The notes under the pieces were generated by a model that did not search any database, had not been told where the DNA came from, and worked only from the letters and a program-made list of their open reading frames with translations. 64,000 nucleotides of DNA from a plasmid: the sequence record NZ_CP084013.1; one strand, given 5' to 3'. Positions 23,687-50,508 of the stretch are shown in pieces. A program made the translations under genes and the position numbers. How positions within the stretch are numbered: position 1 is the stretch's first letter; each line of letters starts with the position of its first letter.

Positions 23687-23711
23687 GATTCCCAATGGTA
23701 TCCGGTTTCCC

Positions 23712-26295: not shown

Positions 26296-26865
26296 TCAGC
26301 GAATCAGCTCCAGAAGCCCTCGGTTCTCGTTCCTGCCGAACCGGTGCAGTCTTGAATATTCCTTGAGCGCGTGTTCGAGCCGGCCGGGCTCAGCCCAGTA
26401 TCGTTCCAGCCATGCGCGGCTTTTCACCTGCTTCATGCCCAGTTCTCTTTTGCAATAGTCGGAGGGCTTCAGCCGTTTGGAGCCGTTCGTGTATTTGCCG
26501 TACATGCCCTCGTTGATGATGACCAGCATTTCGATTTCGGGATGGGTTCGCAGGTTCACGACCTCGGCCGCATGCTCGTAGCCTCGAGGTATGCGCAGTA
26601 CATCCGAGTCCGAGTCGACTATACGTATGATCAGCAGCGGGTGTTTGCCGTATGACATGTTGAGGAACCGGTCGAGCATCCGCTTCGATTCCTTGCGGGT
26701 GAAATACCATGTGCCTCGCAGCTGATTAGGCACGATAAGCTCGTTCGGCACGGTCAGTTCGCCGCGTTCGATAAGGGTCGTGAGTATGTACTGTTCGGCC
26801 ACGCCCTCGCAGACGAACAGCACATACTGGCCTTCCGCATTAAGCATGCACGTACCTTTCCGCAT
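26296..26865 (-). CDS. TOPRIM/DUF4435-like nuclease (AriB/OLD-family-like partner of the ABC ATPase)
   Basis: N-terminal VLFVCEGVAE (TOPRIM Glu). IRIVDSDSD (DxD). It overlaps the upstream ATPase gene. Confidence 0.45.
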   Translation of the reverse strand: MRKGTCMLNAEGQYVLFVCEGVAEQYILTTLIERGELTVPNELIVPNQLRGTWYFTRKESKRMLDRFLNMSYGKHPLLIIRIVDSDSDVLRIPRGYEHAAEVVNLRTHPEIEMLVIINEGMYGKYTNGSKRLKPSDYCKRELGMKQVKSRAWLERYWAEPGRLEHALKEYSRLHRFGRNENRGLLELIR

Positions 26866-28021
26866 AATCCTGGAGGGCGCGGACGGCCGCGTATGAGGGC
26901 GCGGTACCGGGTACCCGGTTGGCGAAGAAGGAAACGCTCTTCTTCAAATCGGTGCGGCCCAGATATGCGCCCAGATTCCGGAGGGCGAAGCCTTTTCCAT
27001 CGCGGACGGCGAACCATATCGAATCCTTGCGGGTGAAATGATCCAGCAGCTCCGGATAGTGGGTGGAGAACAGGAGCGTGGCCCCATGCGGGTTCGTGAC
27101 CGGGGAGGCGAACAGGTCCATGATGGCGAATACGAGCTGCTTGTTGATGCTGTTCTCCAGTTCGTCCACAATCAGATAGCCACCCGCGCGCAGTGTCTCC
27201 AATGCTCGGCCGACCAGTGCGCCGCCTCTCAGGGTACCGGATGAGACCATGTTGACCAGCGAGTTCGGGGTGACCTCCCGCTCCTTGCCCTCATTGCGGA
27301 ATTTCAGATGGATTCCGTCCTTGTCGTAGTCGAGACGTTCGATGCTGGCATCGAACAGCGTCACGACGGGGCGGGCCGGGCTGACGGTGAGCGTCGGGGA
27401 CACCGGCAGCAGTTCGGTCGCGATGTCGGTGTCCTTGACGAAGGCCCCGCAAATACTCCGGTCGGGCGGCAGATACCGTTTCGCGTCGGCGGACAGTTCG
27501 CCCCGGACGCCGGGCCTGCCCACGTTGCGGGATGAGAGCACGGTCCACCGTTCCGGATCCAACGTGCCGTTCATGGCGGAGGCAAGCATTTTCTTGCTGA
27601 GCTTGCCATGGTGGATGCTCAGGGTCTCACGGATGAACCTCAACGGCGTGCGACCCTCGCCTGTCCGCTCGAGCAGGCTGTCGATGAGATGGAAGCGACC
27701 GTCCTGTTCGAACAGCGCGCGCACCCCGATCCGGTCGTCCATGGTGTCGTACAAAGGGAACAGGTCGGGGTTCAACGATCCCAGCGACATGCCGCCGGCG
27801 ACGGCGAGGGCGAGTTCGGTGACCCTCAACGCGGTGGTCTTGCCGGAGGCGTTGATGCCGGCGACGCCGATGGCCGTGTTGATGCTGATGTTGCGTGCGG
27901 CGCCGTCGAGCATGTGCGTGTATCCGGGTTCCCTTACGGCGTCGATGGCGTACAGGTCCATCCTGCATTCATGGTTTTCGTATAGGCGCAGGCCGCTGAT
28001 GGCGTAGCTCAACAACCTCAT
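26840..28021 (-). CDS. ABC-type ATPase (AAA_21/OLD-family-like; AriA-like)
   Basis: Walker A GINASGKTT. ABC-signature-like SSGTLRGG. Walker B YLIVDELENS. H-loop LLFSTHYPE. Start at ATG 28021 with RBS GGGAGAAAG. Confidence 0.6.
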   Translation of the reverse strand: MRLLSYAISGLRLYENHECRMDLYAIDAVREPGYTHMLDGAARNISINTAIGVAGINASGKTTALRVTELALAVAGGMSLGSLNPDLFPLYDTMDDRIGVRALFEQDGRFHLIDSLLERTGEGRTPLRFIRETLSIHHGKLSKKMLASAMNGTLDPERWTVLSSRNVGRPGVRGELSADAKRYLPPDRSICGAFVKDTDIATELLPVSPTLTVSPARPVVTLFDASIERLDYDKDGIHLKFRNEGKEREVTPNSLVNMVSSGTLRGGALVGRALETLRAGGYLIVDELENSINKQLVFAIMDLFASPVTNPHGATLLFSTHYPELLDHFTRKDSIWFAVRDGKGFALRNLGAYLGRTDLKKSVSFFANRVPGTAPSYAAVRALQDYAERYVHA

Positions 28022-29147
28022 GCTTTCTCCCTTGTAAACGTTTTTTCTGTATACATAGGCTATCACTGAATGGAGACCGTCGATACCCGGAAACCGTCAG
28101 ATCGCCTCCCCCCCCCCTGACTCCCAGGCAGCCGGGCGTCGCCGTCCGTTTCGGGTCGGGCATGAACTGAGCCGGATTATTCCCGATCGCCGTCAGCAAT
28201 GCGTCCATGTCGAGCGCGTACAGGCCGCTGTTCGACTGCGGGTTCAGCTCGATCACATGCGGCCGCCCGGCATCATCCAGATACAGGTCCATCACGTATG
28301 GGCCTTCGACTTCGCCGCGTATCGCATGCGCCGCCTCGTGCGCGAACGCCTCATACAACCGTGCGATGTCGGGATGCGATTCGATGCGCCCGCTGTTGCG
28401 CGTCTCCTCCATGCGCGGATCATACCGGTCACCCCGATTGTCGGCGGGCGTGAACCGTTCGATGCAGCCGGCGCCGCACACCGGTTTCCCGCCTATCACC
28501 TGCATCCGGTATTCGTAGCGCATGCGCGCCTTTTGCTGGACGAGCACCGCGTCCGGCTCGCCCTCGAACAGTGCGAGATCGTAGCCGGCCCACCGCCAGG
28601 CGGCGAACGGGATATGCTCCGGCTTCCCGCCATACTCGTCCGTCTGCATGAACGTGCCGTCCGGGTCGATGAACGCGAGCGGCAGGCGTTTCTCCCTGAG
28701 CATGAACTTGGCGACCACGCCCGAACCGGGATGCCGGTCGAGCATGCCCCGCGCCGCCACATCGATCGCATCCCCGTCGCAGGCGACGGATCGCGCGTCG
28801 CGCCCCAGAAACGGGCGCAGCGAGGGCATGAGATCCCACCGGTCGACGTTCGAGGCGGGCAACGTCAGCTGATCCATATACGGCCTGATTCTCACCACGC
28901 CGTAATGGGCTAGCGTCATCGGATCCGGCCCCCCGTACGATCGGCCGGCCACGCGCACATGCGGGTCCGGGAGGATACGTGCCGCGGCCTCCAGGCGCGC
29001 CGCCTGTTCGCGCCAATCCTCCGGATCCCCGTCGCCCGGCACAACCTCGCCGACGTATCGTCCCCATGCGGCGCGATACGCTTCCGGCGCGTCCATCACG
29101 TCGGACGGGCGTTCCGTGGGGATGATGTCGATAAGCCAGCCGGTCAA
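27969..29147 (-). CDS. ATP-grasp domain protein. The 3' end is uncertain because of the G10 tract.
   Basis: EYRMQVIGG. C-terminal VMDLYLDDAGRPHVIELNPQSNSGLY (ATP-grasp Mg-binding E/N). Confidence 0.5.
   Translation of the reverse strand: MTGWLIDIIPTERPSDVMDAPEAYRAAWGRYVGEVVPGDGDPEDWREQAARLEAAARILPDPHVRVAGRSYGGPDPMTLAHYGVVRIRPYMDQLTLPASNVDRWDLMPSLRPFLGRDARSVACDGDAIDVAARGMLDRHPGSGVVAKFMLREKRLPLAFIDPDGTFMQTDEYGGKPEHIPFAAWRWAGYDLALFEGEPDAVLVQQKARMRYEYRMQVIGGKPVCGAGCIERFTPADNRGDRYDPRMEETRNSGRIESHPDIARLYEAFAHEAAHAIRGEVEGPYVMDLYLDDAGRPHVIELNPQSNSGLYALDMDALLTAIGNNPAQFMPDPKRTATPGCLGVRGGGGDLTVSGYRRSPFSDSLCIQKKRLQGRKHEVVELRHQRPAPIRKP
28108..28117. repeat. Homopolymeric C10/G10 tract (simple-sequence contingency repeat candidate)
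   Basis: cctCCCCCCCCCCtga. It lies about 90 bp upstream of the ABC ATPase start and inside the 3' end of the upstream ATP-grasp ORF. Confidence 0.8.
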
Positions 29148-32220: not shown

Positions 32221-32808
32221 ATGAAGTTGTCGGAGTACGCGGCCAAGCATGGCATCCAGTATCGTGCCGCTTGGAACCGGTTCAAGGCGGGGAAGATTCC
32301 CGGCGCTTGGCAGGACGAGTCGGGGACGATAATCGTGCCCGACGAGACGCAGGCGCGCCTGAACGACGCCGCCGTGTACGCCCGTGTCTCCGACCCGTCG
32401 AAACGCAAGACCCAACTGCCCGCGCAGCAGAAGCGTGTGGAGGATTGGGCCATCGCCAATGGTTATCGGGTGGTCGCGTCCGTGTCCGAGGTCGGTTCTG
32501 GGGTGAACGACAAGCGTCGCCGTCTGTCCGCGTTGCTGAAGCGCGATGATTGGGGGACGCTCATCGTGGAGCACAAGGACAGGCTGACCCGGTTCGGGTT
32601 TGAATGGTTCCGTCTGTTCATCGAACAGCAGGGGCGTCGCATCGTGGTCATCAACGAGGCGGGCGACGACCGGGCGGACTTGGCGCAGGATTTGGTGAGC
32701 ATCATCTACTCGTTCAGCGCCCGCCTGTACGGGCAACGGCGTTCCAAACGCGCGGAGGCCATGGTCCGCATCGTGGAGGATGGTGAGCGCGATGCCGTCC
32801 AAGCGTAA
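32221..32808 (+). CDS. tnpA: IS607-family TnpA serine recombinase
   Basis: YARVSDPSKRKTQL. GSGVNDKRRRLSALL. MerR-like N-terminus. Confidence 0.75.
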   Translation: MKLSEYAAKHGIQYRAAWNRFKAGKIPGAWQDESGTIIVPDETQARLNDAAVYARVSDPSKRKTQLPAQQKRVEDWAIANGYRVVASVSEVGSGVNDKRRRLSALLKRDDWGTLIVEHKDRLTRFGFEWFRLFIEQQGRRIVVINEAGDDRADLAQDLVSIIYSFSARLYGQRRSKRAEAMVRIVEDGERDAVQA

Positions 32809-34243
32809 CGTCTCCTATCATGCGTACAACGCGGCCAGTCCGATGAACAATCGGAAGCTCGCGGAGTTCGACTGTCTGTTGCCGGTATGGCGTCGCGGCC
32901 TCGTGTTTGCAATGGGCGGTTGGACGCGCGTATTGACATCCGGCGGGGAGCTGCCCCGTTGGATGGATACTAAGAGTTTCCCCGGCTGGCTGTCCCAGCG
33001 CCAGTGGGATTCCGTGACGCGTCAGGCCAAAGGCGCGTTGGATTCTTGGATGGAACTCAGGGAGACCGAGTTTCGCCGCGTCGTCAACGGCAGTAGTCTA
33101 AGCCCGGACATGAAGCGGGAACTGTACGACATCAACCGGCGGCATGAATGGTGGAAGCCGGAGGATGATGAGGCTCACCGCATGGCGCGGCGCATCATCA
33201 AACACCTGCGCAAACAAGTCCCGTTCCCCCGCATGGGACGTTGCCGGACGATGAGCATGGACGGGAAGATAGCCCGAGTCGAGGATGCCATGAACGCCGT
33301 CCATTATCGTTGGTGGGTCACGGTCAGCACCTTGGACAGGGGGCGTCCGATTCGCATCCCGATAATCGCCGACCCCCGGTTGGAAGAGAATCTGGCGGTC
33401 AACAACGAGACCTTGGCGAATCATCTGCAAGCCACCCACACCCCGGAGGAGGGGTGGACGTTCCATGTGATGACCACCAGCCCGAAGGCCACGCCCAGAC
33501 GGACGGGCGAGATTATCGGCGTTGACTGGGGAGTGCAAAGCCTGTTCGCCACCAGCGACGGGCGACTCTTGGGACTCGGACTGTACGCATGGCTGTCGGA
33601 ACGCGACGTGGAACTCGAAACGCTCACCAAGGAGCTGAACCGTAGCCATATCCCCTGCCGGGAATCGAAACGTTACCGTCGGTTGAACAAACGAATACGC
33701 GACCATGTGACCAACGAGACCAACCGGCTGCTCAACCGGCTGGGCGAACAGGACATCAAGGAAATCGTCGTAGAGGAACTCGACTTCCGCCACGGCGGAC
33801 TCACCCGCAGGATGAACCGCATCGTCAGCCGTGCGGGACGCAACGCGGTCAAGCGCAAACTCCAAGACCTGCAAGACAACAAGGGCGTCACCGTCACCAA
33901 AGTCAACCCCGCATACACATCGCAGGAATGTCCGAACTGCGGATGCACCGACCCGCGCAACCGCAAAACCAGAGACCTGTTCCGCTGCATCTGCTGCGGA
34001 TACACGCTTCATGCCGACATCAACGCCAGCCGCAACATACGTGCGAGACGTTCTCGCAGGGATGGATGGCGTTTCATCGGCAGGAAGCAAATCCTCGCCA
34101 CGCTCCGCAACGAGCACGGTGAGCGATGCTCCCGCCCCGACCATCATCGGGACGGGAGACACGTCGCCAAGAGTGCGACTACCCCACGGAACGCGAAAAC
34201 GTCACCGGAGGTCAAAGCTCCTAACGGAATAAAAAACCATTAG
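32792..34243 (+). CDS. tnpB: TnpB RuvC-like RNA-guided endonuclease homolog
   Basis: IIGVDWGVQ. VVEELDF. CPNCGC...CICCGY. HADINASRNI. Confidence 0.8.
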   Translation: MPSKRNVSYHAYNAASPMNNRKLAEFDCLLPVWRRGLVFAMGGWTRVLTSGGELPRWMDTKSFPGWLSQRQWDSVTRQAKGALDSWMELRETEFRRVVNGSSLSPDMKRELYDINRRHEWWKPEDDEAHRMARRIIKHLRKQVPFPRMGRCRTMSMDGKIARVEDAMNAVHYRWWVTVSTLDRGRPIRIPIIADPRLEENLAVNNETLANHLQATHTPEEGWTFHVMTTSPKATPRRTGEIIGVDWGVQSLFATSDGRLLGLGLYAWLSERDVELETLTKELNRSHIPCRESKRYRRLNKRIRDHVTNETNRLLNRLGEQDIKEIVVEELDFRHGGLTRRMNRIVSRAGRNAVKRKLQDLQDNKGVTVTKVNPAYTSQECPNCGCTDPRNRKTRDLFRCICCGYTLHADINASRNIRARRSRRDGWRFIGRKQILATLRNEHGERCSRPDHHRDGRHVAKSATTPRNAKTSPEVKAPNGIKNH

Positions 34244-34454
34244 AAAGCACACTCTGGAACGATGGGTCGATCGGAACGTACCGGCCCGGCATGTTCCCGC
34301 CGCAGTCGCAGCGCACCGTGTACCGTTCCGTCGTATCGTCCACATCATCGTAGATTCGTGGCATGCCGCCGCAGAACGGGCATGGCTTCAACGTCTCGTG
34401 TTCGACCGTCGCATGCCTGTTGTTGCGGGAATCCCAGATTCCTGTGGCCTCCAT
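34221..34454 (-). CDS. Lar-family restriction alleviation protein (zinc ribbon)
   Basis: LKPCPFCGG....VRCDCGG. Confidence 0.6.
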   Translation of the reverse strand: MEATGIWDSRNNRHATVEHETLKPCPFCGGMPRIYDDVDDTTERYTVRCDCGGNMPGRYVPIDPSFQSVLSNGFLFR

Positions 34455-35461
34455 CAGAGCCTGCCCTTCCGCCTGTTTCGTTCCAGACAGTCATCCATCG
34501 CCCGTCCGACCTCCTCATCCGTGATGCCGAACGCCGTGATCAGGTTGCCGACCGTCTGCAACACGTCGGCCAGTTCGTCGAGCATGGCCTGGCGACGCTG
34601 GTCGCGCACATGGCCTATCCAGCCGGCCTTCGCCTTGTCCCGGTCGTCGCCAAGCTCGCCGCCCACGTTCACCCCGTAACAGGCGAGACAGTCCGCATGA
34701 TCGTCGAACTGGTCGCCGATGCCGCTCGGATCGGTCGGATCGCAGGCCTTCAGGTATTGCTTGCATGCCTCCACGAGTTCGGCCGACTCTTCGAGGTTCT
34801 TGACGGCCAGCCACTTGTCCCGTTCCAGACGGCCGAACGATCGGACATCCGGGAGATGCACGGTGCGGCTCCCCTCATGGATCGGAGTGGAATCATTGGA
34901 GGCCGGCTTCCATGGAATCTCTTCGACGGTTTGGAGCGAATACCGGGTGTACGGGCCGTGCGCGGACGGTTCCCCGGAATCGTCGTCAAGCTCTTCGGCC
35001 GTCCATCCGCGATCGGCGATCCACGGCTTGCACCAGTCAAAGTGAGTGCCTTCATCATCCATCGGCTCGAAGTCGCAGCGTGCCCACGGGCCCCATTCGT
35101 GGAGCATCCTCACGGTGATGCCGGAACAAGGCGCGCATTCCCATTCGCGGCCCTCTTCCTTCAGCCGGAAGATGTGCCCGTCGATCCCGTCGCCGCCTGT
35201 GATGAGCCAGAGCGTGCCGTTCGCGTCGCTCCAGCATCCCGCCGTGTCGGGCATGGCGGAGAACCCGGCCCTGGTCAGGTCTATCCCCTTCCATTCGGTT
35301 CGCTGGAACGGTGCGGCCTGTTCCAGCTGTCCCGCGGACAGGATCTCGCCGGTGTCCGCATCCCGTATCGCGAGCTCGCCGGATTCCATGCAGGCCACGA
35401 CCGTTTTCTCGTTCGCATCCCGCCACAGTCCGGGCGCATCCGGTTTCTCGCGGCCGCTCAT
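34454..35461 (-). CDS. Protein with a C-terminal MazG-like NTP pyrophosphohydrolase domain
   Basis: NLEESAELVEA...DELADVLQTVGNLITAFGITDEEV. RBS GGGAGAGG. Confidence 0.5.
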   Translation of the reverse strand: MSGREKPDAPGLWRDANEKTVVACMESGELAIRDADTGEILSAGQLEQAAPFQRTEWKGIDLTRAGFSAMPDTAGCWSDANGTLWLITGGDGIDGHIFRLKEEGREWECAPCSGITVRMLHEWGPWARCDFEPMDDEGTHFDWCKPWIADRGWTAEELDDDSGEPSAHGPYTRYSLQTVEEIPWKPASNDSTPIHEGSRTVHLPDVRSFGRLERDKWLAVKNLEESAELVEACKQYLKACDPTDPSGIGDQFDDHADCLACYGVNVGGELGDDRDKAKAGWIGHVRDQRRQAMLDELADVLQTVGNLITAFGITDEEVGRAMDDCLERNRRKGRL

Positions 35462-35685
35462 TCGGCCTCTCCCATCTGTTCGTCCAGCCATTTTTCGGCC
35501 TCGTTCAGGGTCGAGCATTGCCTGCGAATACTGTTCTCCACGCCGTTCGGCTGGCGGACGAGCAGTATCGCCGTATATCCGCCGACCATGCTCGCCACGA
35601 CGCCGCCGCGCCGGGTGCGGGTGCGTCTGGGATGCTCCCACATGCGCGGCAGTCCGACTCGCGCCTCATGCTCGATCAACATCAT
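35458..35685 (-). CDS. Small hypothetical protein
   Basis: ATGA overlaps on both sides. Confidence 0.4.
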   Translation of the reverse strand: MMLIEHEARVGLPRMWEHPRRTRTRRGGVVASMVGGYTAILLVRQPNGVENSIRRQCSTLNEAEKWLDEQMGEAE

Positions 35686-36149
35686 GCGTCCCCCTCTTCC
35701 TTCGGATAGTCGGCTCCGTCACGGTCGAGATACTTGCAATGCAGTCGCGTGGATTCGCGTATGGGCAGGGAGTCCACCCAATGCTCGATTGTGGCCCTTT
35801 TCGCCCGGTTCAGCCATGTCTCATACGCATCCGACGCCTCGCCCGACGTCAATCCGACCGCGTCGCGCAGCATGGCCGTGACCGCCATGCAGACCATGTC
35901 GTCGGTCAGCGGGAGACCGCCCTCCACATGCTTGGGGCCGATATCCACCGATAGGACGCCATCAGGCATCGAACCGTCAGGCAGGAGCGCCGTTTTGAAG
36001 AATTCGTTGGGAATCCTGACTCCAACTGTCCCGTCCTGTAGGGTGACGGCCTTTCCGGTCAGCTCCGTGCCGTTCTCGTAATGGATGGTGGCAATAGGAT
36101 TCTCGTCTGGTTCCGTCTCGTCTGTGACTTGCCTTTTTCCATCGTTCAT
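35682..36149 (-). CDS. Hypothetical protein, paralog of the gene at 40995..41405
   Basis: Shares VDIGPKHVEGGLPLTDDMV with VDIRPSHVGYGLPLTDDMA. Confidence 0.5.
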   Translation of the reverse strand: MNDGKRQVTDETEPDENPIATIHYENGTELTGKAVTLQDGTVGVRIPNEFFKTALLPDGSMPDGVLSVDIGPKHVEGGLPLTDDMVCMAVTAMLRDAVGLTSGEASDAYETWLNRAKRATIEHWVDSLPIRESTRLHCKYLDRDGADYPKEEGDA

Positions 36150-36838
36150 CTTGTTTGTCCTTTCGATTCGATTGAGTTCAGATCGTACGATTGTTCGCCA
36201 ATCAGTTCGCGCAGCTCATACATCTTGTTTTCGATATCATGCCGTCGGGCTTCCATTCGGCTGGCATCCTCTTTGCTGAAACGCGGTAGCCGAGAAAATG
36301 ATTGGGTTAGTAGATTCTCCGTCTCGGCGAGCTGACGGCGGGCCACGCGCAGCAAGGTCCGGGATTCGATGAGACGGGAGGCGTTGATGGCCGGCACCGG
36401 TTCGTCCGGCTGGTCTTCCACAGGTTTGACCTTGACGAAGCTCGGTTGGGCGAACCGGTAGCCGGAATCGCCGAACACGTATTCCAGGCCACGGCCGCCG
36501 GCCCGGATGCCCAATACGCCGTCAAACGGTTCCAGCGGCCCCTCGAACGCCCCACGCCGTCCCCCGAATTCGACGCGCACCCGGACTCCTTCCAGCTCGT
36601 CCAGAAAACGACCCTGCCAGAACGGCTCCTCGGGACGCAGACGCACATGGTCGACTTCTTCCATGAGCCGCACGCCATCGCCCTTGTCCTTCCGTGTGAA
36701 GACGCATGTATCGTCTACCGTCAGATAATCCCCAAAACGGACGAACGGGCCGATATGCCGGCTGCCGTCCGAGGTCACGGCCGCGGCCTCCAACCCAATC
36801 AGATCGTCGAACAGGTAACGGTCCCACCATTCAGACAT
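36146..36838 (-). CDS. Hypothetical protein
   Basis: Six-frame ORF. ATGA coupling. Confidence 0.45.
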   Translation of the reverse strand: MSEWWDRYLFDDLIGLEAAAVTSDGSRHIGPFVRFGDYLTVDDTCVFTRKDKGDGVRLMEEVDHVRLRPEEPFWQGRFLDELEGVRVRVEFGGRRGAFEGPLEPFDGVLGIRAGGRGLEYVFGDSGYRFAQPSFVKVKPVEDQPDEPVPAINASRLIESRTLLRVARRQLAETENLLTQSFSRLPRFSKEDASRMEARRHDIENKMYELRELIGEQSYDLNSIESKGQTR

Positions 36839-37046
36839 GATCCTGCCTTTCCTCCTCCCTGTGGCGCCATGCGTCGCAGGCGGCGCATCTGTCGTTTTCG
36901 CCCAAGGCCGCGTATGCGCCGCAATCCGTGCAGAATCCTCTGTGCATCAGCGAATCTCCTTGAGTTCGGCCTTCAACCTGCGGACGACGAGCAGGCCGTG
37001 CCCGCCGTCCCATTCCACCGGCCATTCCCCGTCGCGGCCGTCGCAA
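36831..37046 (-). CDS. Small Cys-rich protein
   Basis: CTDCGAY....CAACDAW. Confidence 0.4.
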   Translation of the reverse strand: MRRPRRGMAGGMGRRARPARRPQVEGRTQGDSLMHRGFCTDCGAYAALGENDRCAACDAWRHREEERQDHV

Positions 37047-37330
37047 GGTTCGGCCGGTCCGACAATCCTCAATTCAGGCAATTGACTTCCTCCCCACGGC
37101 TGAAGCCGGTGGTCTTACGGCGCGATTCGATAAGTCCATCAGAAAAATCCTTCCAAAACGGATAGGCCGAGGAACAACAGCCACGAGACCAGCTCCGAGA
37201 ACATGATCGTGAACGCGATGGCCGCATGCAATCGTCCTAACCTCAGGTCTTTCGATCTGAGCAGCGGCGCCAGAGGAATGAGTGCGAGAAGATTGGCTCC
37301 GACCCACATGATTCGAACATAGCCCATTGC

Positions 37331-38191
37331 TTAATCCCATTTCGGTTTGATGGTGGCGACGTGGCGGGCGACGAGGCCGGTCGGGTCGATGATGGTCACG
37401 TCCAGGGCGGTCCGGTTGTCTTTCAGGTATTTCCCGTAACGGACGGCGAACCGTTCGAGTATCTTCGGATGGTCCGCGAACATGGTCAGATCCACGAAGA
37501 ACCGTCCGTGCGGCAGCCGGCCGAGCGTACGCGCGGTGATCGCCCACAGTTCGCGTCCCGACCGTTCCAATGCGCCGGTCCCGTTGGCGACGACGGGGCG
37601 CAACGGGAGGAACCCCGGATGCCGGTCCGCCCGGTCGAGCAGGCCGAGCCGGTCGGGGAACCGCATGCCGGTCAGGTTCACGCCATAATCGACGGGCCTG
37701 TCGAGCCGGCTATGGTAGGCGAACAGGAATTGGGTGCCGAGCAGGCGGATGCCGGTCGCATCCAGGAGAACATCGCCTGTCAGGGCGTTCAGCGTGTTCG
37801 CGAGACGTTTCGCCGTGTTCTCGCCCGGCGTCGGCTCCGACGGGATGATGAGGACCCCATCCGGGGTCTCCGCGATGAAGCAGGCGCATCCTTTGGCCAT
37901 CTCCATGGGTTTCATGCCGTCGGCGATCGGGTTCGGCTCCCACTTGTCGCCATCCGTGAGATGACGTGCGCAGGATTCCAGATCCGAGAGGAGCGCGTCC
38001 GCGTTCATGTACGTGTCGTACAGGCGTCGCCAATGAGCGCGAACCTGTTCCATGATCTTCGGATCGTCGCAGGACAGATGGCCTATCCCGTTCTCCGCGT
38101 CGTTGATGGCGGCGGCGAGCCCGCGGCGGGCGACCGCCAGCATCATCCTCGCCTCGGTGTTCTGTTCGAGCGTGAAATCATGACCGTTCAT
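37331..38191 (-). CDS. Hypothetical protein
   Basis: 286-aa ORF in the same operon. Confidence 0.45.
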   Translation of the reverse strand: MNGHDFTLEQNTEARMMLAVARRGLAAAINDAENGIGHLSCDDPKIMEQVRAHWRRLYDTYMNADALLSDLESCARHLTDGDKWEPNPIADGMKPMEMAKGCACFIAETPDGVLIIPSEPTPGENTAKRLANTLNALTGDVLLDATGIRLLGTQFLFAYHSRLDRPVDYGVNLTGMRFPDRLGLLDRADRHPGFLPLRPVVANGTGALERSGRELWAITARTLGRLPHGRFFVDLTMFADHPKILERFAVRYGKYLKDNRTALDVTIIDPTGLVARHVATIKPKWD

Positions 38192-38489
38192 TCGGGATCT
38201 CCTCCTTGATGCATTCGGGGCATTGCCCGTCCTTCCAGCCGGCCGGATCGATCATGATGTTCGTGCAGGTCGAGCATTCGGGCAGCCGGTGCGCCGGGCA
38301 GTAGTGCATGTCGCGTTCCAATTCGGGATGCTCGTCCTTGTACAGGATCTGCCAGCCGTCATCCTTCGCGTCGAACAGCAGATCGTCCTCGTACGCATAC
38401 CAGTCGTTGATCCGTTGTTCGCAGTTGTGGTCGTCGCATTCGAGCCTGAACCAAGCGCGGCTGTCAAACGTTTCTTTGATTCTTGCCAT
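38178..38489 (-). CDS. Small Cys-rich (zinc-finger) protein
   Basis: Internal ATG with a GGAGG RBS. CDDHNC...CPAH..CSTC..CPEC. Confidence 0.45.
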   Translation of the reverse strand: MARIKETFDSRAWFRLECDDHNCEQRINDWYAYEDDLLFDAKDDGWQILYKDEHPELERDMHYCPAHRLPECSTCTNIMIDPAGWKDGQCPECIKEEIPNERS

Positions 38490-40251
38490 CAAGCCTCCGT
38501 TCCTTTGCGTGCGTCCGACGGTATGCGTCGCTCGGCGAGACGTCGGGAGTCGCCGGGCCTTCGACGGCCAGCAAGTCGCCGACATATTCCATATCCACGT
38601 CGCGTTCGTTGAACGCCTTGCGCGTGTACACAAGACGGTTCATGTTGGCGTGGGACAGTACCCAACGCGCTTTCTCCGCGCGTTCGGAATGGTCGTTGTC
38701 GGCAATCGGCCTATCATGCAGGACGGTACGCTTCAACATGGTTCTCAAGCTTTTGACCTCAAGATAATAGTCGGATTTCAGCTTGAACATGTACCCGTCG
38801 GCGTCATACACCACAACGCCCTCACGTGTGGAATCATGACGCTCCTCGTCCAACATGCTCCACAGTGCCTCCCGCTCCTCGTCGGATTGGAAGACGCCCA
38901 ACACCTCCGGCCGGGCGAAGAACCCGTCCATGTCAATCAGCTTGTCGGCGTCATGGTCGATATGGAAGTCCACCGTGTTCCCGATGGCGTGCAGGAACAC
39001 GAGCTGAGACGTATCATACTTGACGATGTGACGGTCGGACTCTTGGTCGATGACCTCGAACGCCAACGTCACGTCGGCATCATGGACGATGTTCCACAAC
39101 GCCTGTTCCTGACCGCCGTCCAACGTCTCCTTGAAGAGCCGTTGTATGAGATACGAGTAGTCGGTCTGTCCGCTCTTCGACCAGAAACGCCACGAACCGT
39201 CTCCGCGTGCGGACACCAAGCCGAGGAACCCGTTCTCCTTGCGTTCCACGCGCACCGGGAACTTGAGACGCTTGTCGATGTTCTCGCGGGTGGTCTGCTC
39301 GTTCTCCCCGAGGTTGAAGAACTTCTCGAATCCTCGTGCCACGACCCTGCCGTTCCCGTCGAGGAACAGGCCGCGCGCCTTGCTGGAATACTCGTCCCAA
39401 CGCTGGTTCTTGAACGCGTCACGACTGAAGTTGCAGGCGTACACGTCGGTCTCGCCTTTGACCGGACGGACGTGTACGTTGTCGGAGTCGCGCATGATGT
39501 CAAGCAGGTTGCTCCCGTCGGCGGAGAAGTCGGCGAACCCGTCTTCGGTCGTATGCGCACCCTGTTCCAGCCACTTCGAGTAACGGTCCAGTGTCCACTT
39601 CACGCCATCCTTGAGCGACGGCATGTCCAAACGGACGGTACCGGTCGCATCACGCCCATTGCTTGAGGCCGCAGTGTAACCCATTTCGGCGTCGTCCACG
39701 GTGCGGGCATTGCCGTCCCACAGCAGTCCCACGTCAACCATCACCGTCTCCCCCATTGGGTTCATACGGTACACGCCGTCCGTCTTCATGACGCGAACGT
39801 TGACCCAACGGCTGTCACGTTCAAGGCACCCATGCCAAGTCTCATACTGGGTGCGCAGATACTTCTCCGGCACACGGTCGCTCTCGACGCGGATCCTGTT
39901 GCGTTCCAGCAGTTCGTCCAACGGCGTGTTGAATGTGAAAGTCTCAACATGCGCCTTGTGACGGACGGCAATCTGCACCTCGTCCACGCAGAAACGCGGG
40001 TTGACATGCTGGGAGTCGCTGATGACATTCACGCCTTTGGCGAGCAGGTCGCTGATGATGGTATGCGCCTGACGGACGAGAATCCTGTTCAACTGTGGAT
40101 TCATGGTTTCATGCCATGCCTGACGGCCTCCCGCCATCATTTCACGCAAACCGTCCAAGCTGACGATTACCGTATTCGAATCGACATGCTTCCGCGCCCA
40201 AGTGCTCTTTCCCGAGCCGGGCAGTCCTCTAAGAATGGTCAAAGTGGTCAA
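38464..40251 (-). CDS. Bifunctional polynucleotide kinase (P-loop) and RNA ligase fusion (T4 Pnk/Rnl-like RNA repair enzyme)
   Basis: N-terminal ILRGLPGSGKST. C-terminal nucleotidyltransferase motif I VERKENGFLG (KxNG). Later VVVYDADGYMFKLK. TTG start. Confidence 0.65.
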   Translation of the reverse strand: MTTLTILRGLPGSGKSTWARKHVDSNTVIVSLDGLREMMAGGRQAWHETMNPQLNRILVRQAHTIISDLLAKGVNVISDSQHVNPRFCVDEVQIAVRHKAHVETFTFNTPLDELLERNRIRVESDRVPEKYLRTQYETWHGCLERDSRWVNVRVMKTDGVYRMNPMGETVMVDVGLLWDGNARTVDDAEMGYTAASSNGRDATGTVRLDMPSLKDGVKWTLDRYSKWLEQGAHTTEDGFADFSADGSNLLDIMRDSDNVHVRPVKGETDVYACNFSRDAFKNQRWDEYSSKARGLFLDGNGRVVARGFEKFFNLGENEQTTRENIDKRLKFPVRVERKENGFLGLVSARGDGSWRFWSKSGQTDYSYLIQRLFKETLDGGQEQALWNIVHDADVTLAFEVIDQESDRHIVKYDTSQLVFLHAIGNTVDFHIDHDADKLIDMDGFFARPEVLGVFQSDEEREALWSMLDEERHDSTREGVVVYDADGYMFKLKSDYYLEVKSLRTMLKRTVLHDRPIADNDHSERAEKARWVLSHANMNRLVYTRKAFNERDVDMEYVGDLLAVEGPATPDVSPSDAYRRTHAKERRLDGKNQRNV

Positions 40252-40271
40252 TTTCGAAGCCTTTCTTTACT

Positions 40272-40970
40272 TCAGTTCTCCTGAAACATGCGAACAAGTT
40301 CCACTTCGGACACGGGGCGCATGTTCCACGCGTCCAATCCCACGTTGATTTCGTTACGGTTCTTGAACTCATGGGGAGTGTTCGCATGGGTGTGACCGTG
40401 CAGCAATCGCATGCTCTCCCCCACTTGAGGAATCGCATACCGTCGAAGCTCCGACTTCGCCCAATTGGAAGCCACGTCATCCGCTGCCGGTAGGTCGAAG
40501 TCCTCACGCCATTGGAAATGGCAGAGGAACACGGTCATAATGGTTTCGCCGTCCGTGATGTCCGTCATGCCGATACGCCCGATTTCACCGAACGCCTCGG
40601 TCAAATCCTTGAAGCCCTTGCTCTTCCCGTACAGCACGTCGTCATGGTTTCCGAGAATCAGATGACGGTTATTGCGAGGACAGCGCAAGCTTTTGACATG
40701 CATAAGCGCCTGTTGAAGACTCCAAGCGCCTCCGCTGCATAGGTCCCCAAGAATGTAGAGTTCATCATTCGGACCTACGATTTCGTTGATATGGTCGGTC
40801 ACGTCCATGTCATGCCGGTACCAGTTGACGCAATCCTTGACCTGCATGTGGGCTTCGTTAGCCTGTTGCTTGATGGTATTGTCCGACGTGAATCCGGTTT
40901 TCGCATATCCCCGCAATGCGGCCACGAACGGGTGGGCGAAGTGGGTGTCGGAGGTGAAGTATTTAGTCAT
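40272..40970 (-). CDS. Metallophosphoesterase (candidate 3'-phosphatase / 2',3'-cyclic phosphodiesterase partner of the kinase-ligase)
   Basis: YFTSDTHFAH, GDLCSGG, GNHDD and GHTHAN. Confidence 0.65.
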   Translation of the reverse strand: MTKYFTSDTHFAHPFVAALRGYAKTGFTSDNTIKQQANEAHMQVKDCVNWYRHDMDVTDHINEIVGPNDELYILGDLCSGGAWSLQQALMHVKSLRCPRNNRHLILGNHDDVLYGKSKGFKDLTEAFGEIGRIGMTDITDGETIMTVFLCHFQWREDFDLPAADDVASNWAKSELRRYAIPQVGESMRLLHGHTHANTPHEFKNRNEINVGLDAWNMRPVSEVELVRMFQEN

Positions 40971-40994
40971 TGTCTTTTTCCTTTGAAAAGAAAG

Positions 40995-41405
40995 CTAGGG
41001 GAATAGGGGCTGTTCCCATCCCTTGGAATTCCGGACTACTTGATGGGGATGGGAACGGCCACCGCTTTCTTCAGGCCGTCCCGGTCTATCTGCCGCAGAT
41101 CCGTTTTCCTCGTCATCATCGTCAATCCTTTCTAAGCCTTTTCCTTCTCCTCGTTCGTGATCGATCATGTACGCCATGTCGTCGGTCAGCGGCAGCCCGT
41201 ATCCCACATGACTAGGCCGTATATCCACGAAGGTGATGTGCGGCGGCAGACTACCATCCGCGCGTTGCACAAGCATGGAAGCGGCGCCGCCCAACGAAAC
41301 AAGCAAGGCTCCCTCGTCGGTGATGACAGCCGGACCCGCGAGTTCGGCTCCGCTGTCATACCGGACCCGCAGCATCAGGTCTCCGTTTTTCTTCGGATTG
41401 GTCAA
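40995..41405 (-). CDS. Hypothetical protein, paralog of 35682..36149
   Basis: TTG start 5 nt after RBS aaagaggagga, directly downstream of the left arm of the repeat pair. Confidence 0.45.
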   Translation of the reverse strand: MTNPKKNGDLMLRVRYDSGAELAGPAVITDEGALLVSLGGAASMLVQRADGSLPPHITFVDIRPSHVGYGLPLTDDMAYMIDHERGEGKGLERIDDDDEENGSAADRPGRPEESGGRSHPHQVVRNSKGWEQPLFP

Positions 41406-41444: not shown

Positions 41445-41461
41445 ACCATATTGTATTTTAC

Positions 41462-41487
41462 ATGTTATACTGAATATGTCCACATAA
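41462..41487 (+). promoter_or_regulatory. Repeated promoter cassette, copy d-right (right arm of the divergent inverted pair)
   Basis: atgTTATACTGAATATGTCCACATAA. It is separated from the left arm by 17 bp. Confidence 0.6.
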
Positions 41488-43204: not shown

Positions 43205-43795
43205 ATGAGCTACTGGGACAAATACCGAAGCGACGATCCACGACGCATCCCGCCGCTGGAGGCGCCATTGCTCGACTACATCGTGCTCGACACCGAAACC
43301 ACCGGCCTCAACCCGGAAGATGGCGCGAAACTCATCGAAATCGGCGCCGTGAAAGTCAAGAACGGACGAATCGTCGACACCTACAGCCAACTCATCAACC
43401 CGCAAATGATCGTCCCGCCACACATCACGCAATTGACGGGAATCACCACTTACGACGTGAGCGGCAAACCGACTGTCAAGCATGCGATGAAAGAGTTCGA
43501 ACGGTGGCTGGGATTCGAAACGCCCTTCCTCGCACACAACGCGACGTTCGATTTGAAATTCCTCGACTGGGCCACGGCGGAAACCTGGCCGAATCGCCCC
43601 CTGTTCGACCACCCATTCCTGGATACCTTGGAAATGAGCCGTGACATCCATCCGGAAATTCGCCATCACAAGGTCGCGGATCTGATCAAACGCTATCACG
43701 TGGCAGACGTGGAACAGCATCGAGCTCTTTCCGACGCAATGCAAGAGCAAGCCTTGTACCAGATTATGTGCAAGGAGTATTTCCTCGGAGCCTGA
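43205..43795 (+). CDS. DEDDh 3'-5' exonuclease (DnaQ / Pol III epsilon-like)
   Basis: VLDTETTGL (Exo I), FLAHNATFDLKFL (Exo II) and HRALSDA (Exo III). Confidence 0.75.
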   Translation: MSYWDKYRSDDPRRIPPLEAPLLDYIVLDTETTGLNPEDGAKLIEIGAVKVKNGRIVDTYSQLINPQMIVPPHITQLTGITTYDVSGKPTVKHAMKEFERWLGFETPFLAHNATFDLKFLDWATAETWPNRPLFDHPFLDTLEMSRDIHPEIRHHKVADLIKRYHVADVEQHRALSDAMQEQALYQIMCKEYFLGA

Positions 43796-43867
43796 TTTGC
43801 AGTTGTTGTGTTTGCGGTCGAATGCGGCTATAATTTATTTTACATATTATGATTGGAGGTGTTTGGT

Positions 43868-44491
43868 ATGCGCACGTATCTTCGGAGGGCCGAGGCGGCG
43901 AACCGTCTGCACATATCGACCACCGCGTTCAAAACGCTCGTAGCCGAGGGGAAAATCAAATACGAGCTGTCGCCCGGCGGGCAGAAGGTGTATGACCCGA
44001 AGGAAATCGACCGTTTCGCCGCCCGCGTTCAGGGTAGGGAGCCGGCGGAAGGCGTTCTCGTGTTCTACGTGCGGGACAGCGAGGGCAACACGACGCGAAT
44101 GAGAAATCAGGAGGAGCGGCTAGAGAAGGCGTATGGCGCTCCGTCAAAAGTGTACCGCGACCGCGCCTCCGGATTGAATGAGAACCGCAAGGGACTGGCA
44201 CGACTGCTCGACGACGCGGAGGAGGGACGTTTCGACCGGGTGGCCGTCACCGCCAAAGACAGGTTGAGCAGGTTCGGCGCATCTTATCTACAACGGCATC
44301 TCGCGTTCCTCGGCATCGACCTGATTGTGTTGGACGGGGAACGGGAGAAGGGGATGATGGACGAACTCATGGACGACTTCATGGCTTTGCTCGCCTCGTT
44401 CTCCGGACGGTTCTACAAGCTGCGCAGCATCGAACATGAGAAACTGCTGCTCGACCGGGCGCGCGAAAGACTGGAGGAGCGTGGAGCATGA
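43868..44491 (+). CDS. tnpA: IS607-like TnpA (serine recombinase family, divergent catalytic region)
   Basis: VLVFYVRDSEGN. RASGLNENRKGLARLL matches GSGxxxxRxxLxxLL of the other two TnpA. GGAGGT RBS. Confidence 0.55.
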   Translation: MRTYLRRAEAANRLHISTTAFKTLVAEGKIKYELSPGGQKVYDPKEIDRFAARVQGREPAEGVLVFYVRDSEGNTTRMRNQEERLEKAYGAPSKVYRDRASGLNENRKGLARLLDDAEEGRFDRVAVTAKDRLSRFGASYLQRHLAFLGIDLIVLDGEREKGMMDELMDDFMALLASFSGRFYKLRSIEHEKLLLDRARERLEERGA

Positions 44492-46146
44492 AAACCGGTG
44501 AAATCGCCTGCGCTGTTCCAGACCTGCACGACTACCGTCTATACGACCACAGGACAGGCGAACCGTTGGACCCGGTGGAGGCCGAAACGCTGCTCTGGCT
44601 GCACTTGGACCATTGCCGGCAATGCCAGAACCGGATGATTCACGACCCGAGGAACCGGAATCTCAAACGGGGCGGAAATGCTGGGAGAGGCAACGAATGG
44701 GCGAGGAAGAACGTCGCCTGCACAAGCCTGCCCTCCAAGTTCAGAAACCTCTCCCATCAGAACCGCGTCAATCAGACCGAGGCCGCCCGACTGCTCCTCG
44801 CATGGCGGGAACGCGAGGACATCGCCACCGCAATCGACGCCATCGGCTGGGAGAAGGCCACCTACGGGAACGTGCAGAAACGTTTGAGCCGGGACATCGA
44901 CCGTGAACTGTTCACGAACGTGCTCAACAGCGGCGGTCATCCAAGCCTGCCCACCGTGGAGCGCACGCAGTTCCCCTACGCGTACTCGAACAACAACTCC
45001 TGCGGCATGTACGTCATCGACCAGCCCGCCGGGGTCATCCGATACGAGCGGATGGCCGTCTACGACAGGTTCGTGGACGTTGAGATATACGCGCCGCACA
45101 TCATGCGCCTGCATCCGAACCTGACGAAGGTGTCCCGGCCCACGCTACGGTGGAACGGGGACTGCGTGACATGGGATGTCATCGTCTTCGAACCAAAACC
45201 CCGCAAAGAGGATGTGAACAAGGTGAGCCACGTCGTCGGCTTCGACCTGAACGCCGACTGGCATGGTGGCATCAGCGGGGCGCGACTCTCCTACAACGGG
45301 ACGGTGAGCCGAGAACTCGTAGCCGGCATCGACACACGCCGCCAGCAAACCGTGTTGGAGGAGCTGTATGTCCAATACCAGCGGTGTTTGAAGAAGCTCG
45401 ACCGGCTCATGCCATGGCAGCGGCCACACGACCCGGACGACCCGCAGCAAGTGGCAGCCCACCCCGAATGGCGGCGACTCTACGAACAGTCGCTCAACCT
45501 CCGGGATAAGATGTACCGCATCAAAACCCTGTTGGACTGGCGGTACGCGCACGACATCACCGACCATGCCAAACCCGGCGAACTCATCGCCGTGGAGAAA
45601 CTTTCCCCGTTCGATGCGGCAGGACGCGTCGAGTTCCGGCACGGCAGCCAACTGGAAAAACTGGAACACGTCGCCTCCAAGACCGGACAGCGCGTGGTGC
45701 AGGTCAACCCGGCGCACACGTCCGCCACCTGCCCGTGGTGCGATACCGTCAACAAGGTCGGCAAAGCCAGACAATACCGGTGCGCAGGATGCAGACGTGA
45801 CATCCCCCGCGACTACGGGTCTGGCGTCAACATCGCCAAACGCGGCGCACGCTATCTCGGACACAAAAACGTCCGACCTACCCCGCCGAAGGGACACGCC
45901 ACACCCAAACGTCCACCGGTCAGACACAAACGACCGGACGAAAAAACACGAGAACTTCTCACACAGATAACGTCAGGAACCGGCAAGGGGCCGGAATCCT
46001 TATGGGCCAAGACCACTCCACTGGAATGGCACATCCCATCGACGGCGACTATCGAGAATACAAGGAACCGACTAGCCCTCGCAAACCAGCGAGACCGGGC
46101 AGCAACGGGGTTACGGCAGAAACCGCAACCACCCCATTCTCGATAA
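44488..46146 (+). CDS. tnpB: TnpB-like RuvC nuclease (552 aa)
   Basis: VVGFDLNAD. LIAVEKLS. CPWCD...CAGC. RDYGSGVNIA. Confidence 0.7.
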   Translation: MKTGEIACAVPDLHDYRLYDHRTGEPLDPVEAETLLWLHLDHCRQCQNRMIHDPRNRNLKRGGNAGRGNEWARKNVACTSLPSKFRNLSHQNRVNQTEAARLLLAWREREDIATAIDAIGWEKATYGNVQKRLSRDIDRELFTNVLNSGGHPSLPTVERTQFPYAYSNNNSCGMYVIDQPAGVIRYERMAVYDRFVDVEIYAPHIMRLHPNLTKVSRPTLRWNGDCVTWDVIVFEPKPRKEDVNKVSHVVGFDLNADWHGGISGARLSYNGTVSRELVAGIDTRRQQTVLEELYVQYQRCLKKLDRLMPWQRPHDPDDPQQVAAHPEWRRLYEQSLNLRDKMYRIKTLLDWRYAHDITDHAKPGELIAVEKLSPFDAAGRVEFRHGSQLEKLEHVASKTGQRVVQVNPAHTSATCPWCDTVNKVGKARQYRCAGCRRDIPRDYGSGVNIAKRGARYLGHKNVRPTPPKGHATPKRPPVRHKRPDEKTRELLTQITSGTGKGPESLWAKTTPLEWHIPSTATIENTRNRLALANQRDRAATGLRQKPQPPHSR

Positions 46147-50398: not shown

Positions 50399-50428
50399 CC
50401 CGACCATTGCGGTCGGGATATTTTTTTT
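50399..50428 (+). terminator. Rho-independent terminator
   Basis: cccgacc ATTGC ggtcggg followed by atatTTTTTTTT. Confidence 0.7.
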
Positions 50429-50470
50429 GGATATCGCCACCAACCGAAAAACGGGTATTTTCAATAGAAT

Positions 50471-50500
50471 ATCGGTTAATAACAACATCAAAATCTATCG
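50471..50500 (+). promoter_or_regulatory. Conserved ATCGGTTAATAACAA element upstream of the transfer ATPase gene
   Basis: The same 15-mer recurs at 62582 upstream of the large membrane-protein gene, and a partial copy lies at 62560. Confidence 0.35.
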
Positions 50501-50508
50501 TGGAATAT

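Follow-up and report, generated by a model that had tools for sequence, protein, structure and literature searches.

RNA repair systems and the bifidobacterial locus

How broken RNA is healed and sealed is well established for phage T4, for the bacterial Pnkp-Hen1 and RtcAB systems and for tRNA splicing in eukaryotes. To our knowledge, no case of RNA repair as a plasmid anti-defence strategy has been demonstrated. Here we analyze a stretch of 64,000 nucleotides from plasmid record NZ_CP084013.1, referred to below as the window (positions are counted from its first letter). On its minus strand, a gene for a stand-alone metallophosphoesterase (MPE) lies directly upstream of a gene for a polynucleotide kinase-RNA ligase fusion, at the head of a longer array of genes. 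We suggest that the two genes form a mobile RNA healing and sealing cassette that acts as a conflict payload, and give this statement as a whole a rough probability of 0.55. The window belongs to a Bifidobacterium megaplasmid of the pMP7017 family: by megablast, the region and both its flanks match B. longum DS1566 plasmid p1 (NZ_CP146883, 94-99% identity), B. breve pMP7017 (KM406416) and three more members of the family. An earlier sequence-only reading had assigned the locus to a mobile element of a high-GC Gram-positive host, and this assignment is borne out.

T4 Pnkp and Rnl1, which counter the PrrC anticodon nuclease, share with the cassette three chemistries, a T4 Pnk-type kinase, an Rnl1-type ligase and carriage on a mobile element. 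However, the bifidobacterial kinase is fused to the ligase and not to the phosphatase, and the phosphatase is a separate binuclear metallophosphoesterase rather than a DxDxT/HAD domain. The ligase is not an equivalog of T4 RnlA (TIGR02308, 44.4 bits versus a cut-off of 242), and, unlike the T4 system, the cassette is plasmid-borne or chromosomal. A second comparison is with Clostridium thermocellum Pnkp (CthPnkp) of the Pnkp-Hen1 family, which also combines a kinase, a metallophosphoesterase and an ATP-dependent ligase and has a homologous kinase domain. Here, in contrast, two genes share the trio, whose order in fused relatives is MPE-kinase-ligase. The ligase is of the Rnl1/Trl1 type, with TIGR04075 reaching 29.5 bits versus a cut-off of 750 and covering residues 3-136, the kinase part, only. 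The MPE resembles aq_1665 rather than lambda phosphatase, and no match to Hen1 or another methyltransferase partner was found among scanned neighbours or related loci. Because the ligase type differs, the genes are split, Hen1 is missing and the TIGR04075 score falls this far short, the cassette falls outside the Pnkp-Hen1 family.

In structure and in PDB sequence searches, the ligase is most similar to the fungal and plant Trl1/RNL proteins. Trl1, too, unites a kinase and a ligase in one protein, which repairs 2',3'-cyclic-phosphate/5'-OH breaks by healing and sealing. Its domain order is ligase-kinase-CPD (cyclic phosphodiesterase), unlike the kinase-ligase order of the cassette, and its 3' healing is carried out by a 2H cyclic phosphodiesterase that leaves the 2'-phosphate required by the Trl1 ligase. 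Overall, the architecture, in which an aq_1665-type phosphoesterase is encoded separately from a Pnk-Rnl1 fusion and would work with it in trans, represents a new arrangement of known repair chemistry and not a new kind of system.

The setting resembles the leading-region anti-defence islands of conjugative plasmids (Samuel et al. 2024, PMC11541004): small genes, closely packed and all in one direction, form a long array beside a conjugation module, the array holds an anti-restriction homolog, and a sibling plasmid encodes a RecBCD-inhibitor domain. Unlike those islands, the array also holds defence genes. The term 'RNA ligase' has zero occurrences in a full-text term count of PMC11541004. To the right of the array lie conjugation and replication genes, namely those for a VirB4-like ATPase (50407-54828, about 9 kb from the array), a cell-wall hydrolase, HipA, RepA and an FtsK/SpoIIIE protein.

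A kinase-ligase fusion with a separate metallophosphoesterase

The fusion gene (38464..40251, minus strand) encodes 595 aa and starts with TTG, preceded by a Shine-Dalgarno (SD)-like AAAGG. In Pfam, AAA_33 covers residues 4-137 (E 1e-20), and RNA_lig_T4_1 (PF09511) covers residues 291-496 over its full model, positions 1-227 (E 4e-34, 118.9 bits versus a cut-off of 28.3). Invariant motifs, together with PDB and fold matches, delimit a 5'-OH polynucleotide kinase domain (residues 1-143, 39823..40251) and an Rnl1/Trl1-type ATP-dependent RNA ligase (residues 246-562, 38566..39516). Between them lies a variable beta-rich insert (residues 144-245, 39517..39822), defined by homolog alignment and AlphaFold2 (AF2) secondary structure; a recombination-junction tail follows the ligase (residues 563-595, 38467..38565). 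All four segments are on the minus strand.

We aligned the fusion with 14 homologs of 40-74% identity. Residues invariant in the kinase are the P-loop G9-x4-G14-K15-S16, D33, R36 and R117-N118-x2-R121; judging by their spacing, we take D33 and R36 to match T4 Pnk D35 and R38 (Asp-x-x-Arg). Invariant in the ligase are R293, K310, F312, K338-E-N340-G341 (motif I, with the K338 codon at 39238-39240), K359, E399 (motif III), E477-G478 (motif IV) and K490-x-K492 (motif V). These presumably correspond to T4 Rnl1 R54, K75, F77, K99/G102, K119, E159, E227/G228 and K240/K242, which we take to be the full list of essential Rnl1 residues in the T4 Rnl1 mutational literature. The P-loop kinase fused to a KxNG-containing RNA ligase, as proposed from the sequence alone, is therefore confirmed by AAA_33, RNA_lig_T4_1 and K338-E-N-G341. 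The same proposal had named loss of the motif I lysine as one possible refutation; K338 is present and invariant, and hence this refutation fails.

The AF2 model of the fusion has a mean pLDDT (predicted local distance difference test score) of 84.4. In Foldseek comparisons the ligase, from about residue 246, matches Trl1-LIG (6n0t, E 8e-15, 335-361 columns) and T4 Rnl1 (2c5u, E 5e-13). The kinase matches T4 Pnk (1ly1) with a TM-score, normalised to target length, of 0.83 and a root-mean-square deviation of 2.3, and also C. thermocellum Pnk (CthPnk). PDB sequence matches of the kinase are T4 Pnk, C. thermocellum Pnk and Pnkp1. On all sequence and fold features that were tested, the fusion is a member of the Rnl1/Trl1 ligase family and the T4-Pnk kinase family.

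Kinases of the T4 Pnk and CthPnk types act on DNA as well as RNA. One may therefore ask whether the kinase and MPE clean DNA ends while the ligase seals nicks during conjugation or repair. A DNA-bound CthPnk structure is among the fold matches, and a gene for a 3'-5' exonuclease is nearby (43205-43795), both in line with such a role. However, the ligase matches the RNA-specific Rnl1/Trl1 clade by sequence as well as by fold, and DNA ligases appear as distant matches only in both comparisons. We regard DNA-end processing as extremely improbable.

The beta-rich insert is missing from chromosomal forms of 460-480 aa. Its interpretation as a degenerate remnant of the central phosphatase of trifunctional relatives (see below) yielded no alignment and is unsupported. 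The 33-aa tail is the sole part of the fusion that matches p1 (94%), where it forms the 3' end of a backbone open reading frame (ORF). Kinase-ligase homologs stop near residue 562-567, and pLDDT is below 50 for residues 566-595. One metagenomic locus (L038) keeps an unfused intermediate in which the native stop is followed by the backbone tail. The tail is thus probably a chimeric, disordered junction artefact from an unrelated backbone ORF, and not functional.

The MPE gene (40272..40970, minus strand) encodes 232 aa. The product was recognised as a binuclear metallophosphoesterase by Pfam Metallophos (PF00149, E 6.8e-8, 33.6 bits versus a cut-off of 21.5), by a full-length match to the phosphoesterase family phrog_547 (E 1.2e-32) and by its metal-ligand motifs. 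Six such motifs are invariant in nine homologs: D8-x-H10, G75-D76, G107-N108-H109, H151, G192-H193 and H195. The separate calcineurin-like phosphoesterase of the sequence-only reading is real. In a profile search, its nearest solved structure is the uncharacterised Aquifex protein aq_1665 (1xm7, E 4e-8). A common clade with the central phosphatase of the trifunctional relatives was rejected (hhalign probability 4.5%).

Gene linkage, gene fusions and relatives

In 15 loci drawn from assemblies and reference genomes, we found the MPE gene directly upstream of the kinase-ligase gene and in the same orientation. Among these loci are B. hapali, B. leontopitheci, B. saguinibicoloris, B. reuteri, B. 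margollesii, B. aerophilum, B. colobi, B. callitrichidarum, B. pseudolongum and Collinsella metagenome-assembled genomes. Another 31 loci in IMG/VR have the same arrangement, for a total of about 45 independent loci. The genes that flank the pair are mostly unrelated between loci and species. In two proteins, P0083 (752 aa) and P0055 (826 aa), MPE, kinase and ligase are fused in one chain with the MPE at the N-terminus.

An exhaustive search of 1.84 billion representatives returned 254 matches at E <=1e-30. The best 150 are mostly trifunctional proteins of about 700-770 aa with the order kinase-Metallophos-Rnl1 (phrog_8238), the closest sequence family; an example is Buchananella hordeovulneris WP_124912754, which is annotated as 'RNA ligase' only. 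Compared with this family, the ligase of the fusion is 35% identical, including a distinctive N-terminal extension, and the homologous kinase is 22% identical (hhalign E 9e-50). The trifunctional proteins have a PPP-like phosphatase between kinase and ligase. In the Bifidobacterium clade, by contrast, this position is empty or occupied by an unrelated insert of 100 aa, and the phosphoesterase belongs to an unrelated clade and comes from the upstream gene. On the simplest reading of these sequences, the Bifidobacterium/Collinsella kinase-ligase has no internal phosphatase, its function would be supplied by the non-orthologous upstream MPE, and the latter was re-fused N-terminally in some lineages. 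Enzymologically, this would define a new assembly of the kinase-phosphatase-ligase trio, with the phosphatase replaced by non-orthologous displacement. The arrangement had been called unusual. It recurs in Bifidobacterium and Collinsella, and is better described as a lineage-typical variant of a large kinase-phosphatase-Rnl1 family.

Other orders also occur. Ligase precedes kinase in jumbo-phage-like contigs and in Actinoplanes, and Streptomyces phages have Pnk and Rnl as separate genes only (tblastn against phages); the same search found no kinase-ligase fusion at >=80% coverage. One metagenomic trifunctional relative, P0293, is 1069 aa long versus the usual ~740. Its match to an intein-splicing domain (25.2 bits, below the cut-off of 35.8) spans residues 259-562 and overlaps the phosphatase region. 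In our literature searches the architecture, as well as its presence on bifidobacterial plasmids, was undescribed, although the survey of Burroughs and Aravind 2016 (NAR 44:8525) may already list the combination. Searches on Bifidobacterium, RNA ligase and kinase returned nothing relevant.

Proposed RNA repair activity

Three steps can be proposed. The MPE would open the 2',3'-cyclic phosphate and remove the phosphate to leave a 3'-OH; it is predicted to be the 2',3'-cyclic phosphodiesterase/3'-phosphatase of the 3'-end healing step. The N-terminal T4-Pnk-like domain would place a phosphate on the 5'-OH. The C-terminal Rnl1/Trl1-type ligase, adenylylated on K338, would then transfer AMP to the 5'-phosphate and seal the break. 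The domains, the intact catalytic residues, the fold and the linkage and fusion of the genes were shown by computation; from them we infer the activities, the order of the steps and the RNA substrate, probably tRNA.

Since the MPE adjoins the kinase-ligase in about 45 loci, triple fusions exist and relatives are trifunctional, this enzymology is well supported. Judging by the sequences, the cassette very probably encodes the means to heal and seal 2',3'-cyclic-phosphate/5'-OH RNA breaks. The T4 Pnkp/Rnl1 logic that had been claimed for the locus thus finds strong support in the catalytic residues and folds as well as in the adjacent loci and triple fusions.

Insertion and spread of the cassette

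Alignment with p1 (blastn) shows that homology ends at 38563 and returns at 41166. Therefore, a variable segment of 2.6 kb (38564..41165), which holds the MPE and kinase-ligase genes, replaces 1050 bp of p1 that contain two small ORFs. The GC fraction of this segment is 0.562 versus 0.619 for the downstream backbone. The MPE and kinase-ligase genes are present in none of the five sequenced megaplasmids of the family in PLSDB (0/5). The cassette (38464-40970) is a self-contained, horizontally mobile, later insertion at the array head and not an original member of the array.

The exact 595-aa protein occurs in 379 blocks of a public assembly index and is common in gut metagenomes. Most other plasmid-like contigs have the cassette in a different neighbourhood, with a kinase-ligase that retains its native C-terminus. 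The module is also chromosomal in many Bifidobacterium species and in Collinsella; for instance, the triple fusion P0083 lies near lepA and rpsT, and P0053, a short form, near DHO_dh and a cation-efflux gene. Housekeeping-type vertical inheritance of the chromosomal copies was considered and rejected, as their flanks are common to only a few closely related species.

Loci L036-L064 come from IMG/VR uncultivated viral genomes, contigs of 100-217 kb that the database classes as viral. The cassette in these contigs is 83-98% identical, and L036 also has the backbone from g3 to Lar (these genes are described below). Such entries are probably misclassified plasmids, with sizes that reach that of the ~190-kb megaplasmids. 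Megablast of the region against phage genomes gave no match.

Association with conflict genes and alternative roles

We tentatively propose that the cassette serves as a counter-defence payload that would shield the translation apparatus of a cell that bears or receives the plasmid from RNA-cutting defences or toxins; by our estimate this role has nearly an even chance. The case for a conflict role is one of association. The array itself holds a Lar ortholog (see below). In another variant of the megaplasmid, the cassette is followed by genes for a pentapeptide-repeat protein and a protein with a T7 gp5.9 RecBCD-inhibitor domain (E 2.7e-12), and in a third variant genes for Fic and DUF3846 proteins precede it. 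In pMP7017 the equivalent operon (L002 12322-14010; record 126895-128583) has a HAD-family phosphatase gene adjoining that of an Rnl5-type RNA ligase. This ligase (PHA02142 OB-fold and PF09414, Deinococcus Rnl5-like) is encoded a few kb from the tRNA array and tmRNA of the plasmid, and the pair has the appearance of an alternative payload for RNA repair. In one B. pseudolongum locus the two ligase types are adjacent to each other, near AbiEii. Because an alternative ligase is found in pMP7017 and both types co-occur in B. pseudolongum, RNA ligation looks like a recurrent, swappable payload. The cassette may then be one of several interchangeable RNA-ligase payloads in the plasmid family, alongside the tRNA array and tmRNA. 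Jumbo phages, too, pair tRNA arrays and tmRNA elements with RNA ligases (PMC7824862).

pMP7017 is conjugative by experiment and has 20 tRNA genes and a tmRNA (PMC10832533). A narrower version of the counter-defence proposal would have the cassette re-ligate tRNAs or other RNAs cut by abortive-infection or anticodon-nuclease systems of the recipient, during or after conjugative entry. It would then be the plasmid equivalent of T4 Pnkp/Rnl1 acting against PrrC, and a module of a swappable translation-protection toolkit. In this specific form we consider the proposal doubtful. Were the cassette to protect against tRNA-cleaving immunity, RNA repair would join the plasmid anti-defence repertoire, for which the cassette offers a compact candidate of two genes in a plasmid family abundant in the human gut. 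The plasmid tRNA array and tmRNA might in that case be better explained by counter-defence than by codon adaptation, and such protection might help to account for the obstacles that bifidobacteria present to genetic manipulation and to plasmid transfer.

Several observations weigh against the reading of a mobile repair cassette that acts in conflict. RNA 2',3'-cyclic phosphodiesterase activity is documented for the lambda-phosphatase/CthPnkp clade, but membership of the MPE in this clade was rejected (lambda phosphatase 1g5b, E 0.78, versus the aq_1665 value given above). Because the MPE is aq_1665-like and lies outside the characterised RNA phosphoesterase clade, its role in 3' healing is proposed solely on the basis of its linkage to, and fusion with, the kinase-ligase. 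No anticodon nuclease or other RNase threat to be countered by the cassette was identified. tRNA and Rfam scans of the window revealed no tRNA, tmRNA or intron-like RNA. No relaxase or oriT (origin of transfer) was identified for the pMP7017 plasmid family; MOB-suite types plasmids of this family as non-mobilizable. The chromosomal copies stand beside ordinary genes, and therefore the module is not specific to mobile elements. The Lar homolog of the array diverges after residue 67: its conserved C-terminal 17 residues TRVTCLHSAVEKWNRRG are lost and residues derived from an insertion sequence (IS) element stand in their place. Finally, the array downstream contains, on the same strand, a complete MmeI-type type IIL restriction-modification enzyme (20897-23977, with five MmeI domains) and an AbiLi/AriA-like AAA_21 ATPase (26840-28066, PADLOC E 1.4e-28). 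Thus, defence genes share the array with an anti-restriction homolog, and the neighbourhood is a mixed conflict island rather than a pure anti-defence operon. Beside the ATPase gene is a 189-aa partner ORF (pair 26296-28066).

The chromosomal copies also bear on a broader role, in which the module provides RNA repair of general benefit to the host against interbacterial RNase toxins, stress endoribonucleases or type II toxins, including YafQ/RelE-type toxins of the plasmid itself. The presence of the two-gene module or the triple fusion in chromosomes of many Bifidobacterium species and Collinsella fits this role, as do genes for YafQ and RelE/ParE toxins in the same plasmid region of sibling plasmids and a PIN-domain toxin-antitoxin pair near a chromosomal triple fusion. 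On the other hand, flanks are mostly non-syntenic across species, as expected for a mobile accessory cassette rather than a housekeeping gene, and on plasmids the cassette is repeatedly found beside genes of the anti-restriction or anti-RecBCD type. General repair shares its enzymology with counter-defence, so the present data do not separate the two; taken by itself, we judge it possible, if unlikely.

The tRNA content of the plasmid family raises another alternative, namely programmed RNA processing. The ligase might join or circularise one particular RNA of the plasmid or the host, for example, or the cassette might serve to mature the tRNAs or tmRNA of the plasmid. The Rnl1/Trl1 family takes in the fungal and plant tRNA-splicing ligases, and a tRNA array and a tmRNA are encoded by the plasmid family itself. 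However, the window has no tRNA genes, tmRNA or intron-like RNA, sibling plasmids with the tRNA array have no cassette, and the module is found in genomes without such arrays. This makes programmed processing very improbable, and we retain the counter-defence payload as the preferred, if tentative, role.

The remainder of the array

From 40970 to 34221 the minus strand is tightly packed with 11-12 ORFs, mostly with SD-like sequences upstream. Junctions in the array include gaps of 20 and 3 nt and overlaps of 26, 14 and 8 nt. There are three ATGA overlaps (g7/g8, g8/g9 and g9/g10) and one TGATG overlap (g10/Lar). Tight packing had been predicted correctly, whereas the predicted count of about 13 genes with many ATGA overlaps was somewhat high. 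Upstream of the inserted cassette, and directly next to it, is the first gene of the array, u162 (40995..41375, minus strand, ~126 aa), which has no family match. It is a paralog of g8, copies of the two being 39-55% identical (tblastn). A promoter-like site at the head of this leftward array (TGGACA-16-TAAAAT, 41455..41482, minus strand) is suggestive only, since the number of such sites equals the chance expectation; scans for promoters and terminators gave results not above chance.

Downstream of the cassette the backbone genes follow on the minus strand: g3 (38178-38489), g4 (37331-38191), g5 (37139-37327), g6 (36831-37081, a small ORF or possibly two), g7 (36146-36838), g8 (35682-36149), g9 (35458-35685) and g10 (34454-35461). 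This block, g3-g10 (34454-38489), is translationally coupled and 94% identical to p1 at the nucleotide level. Seven or eight of the 11-12 ORFs, those of g3-g9, have no match in Pfam, PHROG, NCBIfam or PADLOC. PADLOC also gave no match for the phosphoesterase, the kinase-ligase, g4, g7 or g10, and therefore the cassette is not a component of a known defence system. Among gut metagenome contigs with the exact 595-aa protein, plasmids that are otherwise identical carry different genes downstream of g3.

The gene that follows this block, Lar (34221..34454, minus strand), encodes a Lar-type zinc ribbon that is truncated at the 3' end to 77 aa. It matches phrog_599 (E 1.4e-7) and, weakly, Pfam. Its scores are below the curated cut-offs (Pfam 25.7 versus 28.6; TIGR03655 28.3 versus 39.6), while C25, C28, C49 and C51 are present. 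The product is 85-88% identical to intact orthologs of 84-92 aa; PGAP assigns the one in pMP7017 to the Lar family, and others carry Pfam Lar matches. The proposed restriction-alleviation zinc ribbon therefore stands as regards its orthology, but with sub-threshold scores and an incomplete C-terminus. The truncation is caused by the end of a TnpB-only IS element (32780..34243, plus strand; Cas12f1-like_TNB E 1.8e-17, OrfB_IS605), and homology to sibling plasmids resumes past it at 34253. Lar has been disrupted independently by IS200/IS605-family elements: in the window the TnpB-only element follows residue 67, and in p1 (L001 7948-10040) an element with TnpA and TnpB splits Lar between residues 37 and 38. 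Either Lar contains a site that these elements prefer as a target, or selection on it has relaxed; both are conjectures.

The backbone gene g10 had been taken for a MazG-like NTP pyrophosphohydrolase. Its acidic motif EExxE...ExxD is invariant (E224-E225-x2-E228 and E296-x2-D299), and its C-terminus matches the NTP-pyrophosphatase profiles PRA-PH and phrog_4856, both weakly (E 0.01). Profile and structure tests gave no further support: comparison with true MazG by hhalign returned a probability of 0.9%, a PDB profile search had no match, and no Pfam domain is recorded in 120 homologs. The AF2 model of g10 (pLDDT 46.7) is too poor for a fold search; its C-terminus is predicted to be helical. 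Members of the g10 family (P0121-P0240) have a near-invariant C-terminal helical module of ~140 aa and an N-terminal half that is swapped, duplicated or deleted, a polymorphic architecture that is reminiscent, by analogy, of conflict proteins. Homologs of the g10 module lie ~4.5 kb from the chromosomal kinase-ligase in three loci (L010-L012). At L029 6477-7835, a canonical MazG gene (PF03819) and a UDG-like gene divergently flank the chromosomal gene for P0083; this is possibly a coincidence, but it recalls the MazG-like motif of g10 in the plasmid array.

These data allow the sequence-only view of the block as one coherent counter-defence operon to be assessed. In its strongest form, every gene from 34221 to 40970 would be directed against host immunity. 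Tight translational coupling, the Lar ortholog, the weak MazG-like motif in g10 and the repair cassette itself are all compatible with such a dedicated operon. However, g3-g9 have no detectable family, Lar is truncated, and the MazG identity of g10 found no support in hhalign and PDB profile searches. Gene content downstream of g3 varies between otherwise identical plasmids, the array runs on into the MmeI enzyme and the AbiLi-like ATPase, the cassette was inserted later, and the module is also chromosomal. A dedicated operon is improbable in our estimation. The claim of coherence was overstated and is not established, although the Lar ortholog and the repair cassette remain in its favour.

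Two further features of the window were noted. An IS607-type element (43853-46146) sits between the 3'-5' exonuclease gene and the backbone; the site is empty in p1. The element comprises a 552-aa TnpB and a 212-aa ORF, which we take, by inspection alone, to be a TnpA of the serine-recombinase type. The sole Rfam match in the window is a Transposase-2 RNA (RF03015, 84.8 bits) at 13060-13128, which overlaps the 3' end of a 450-aa ORF (11792-13144).

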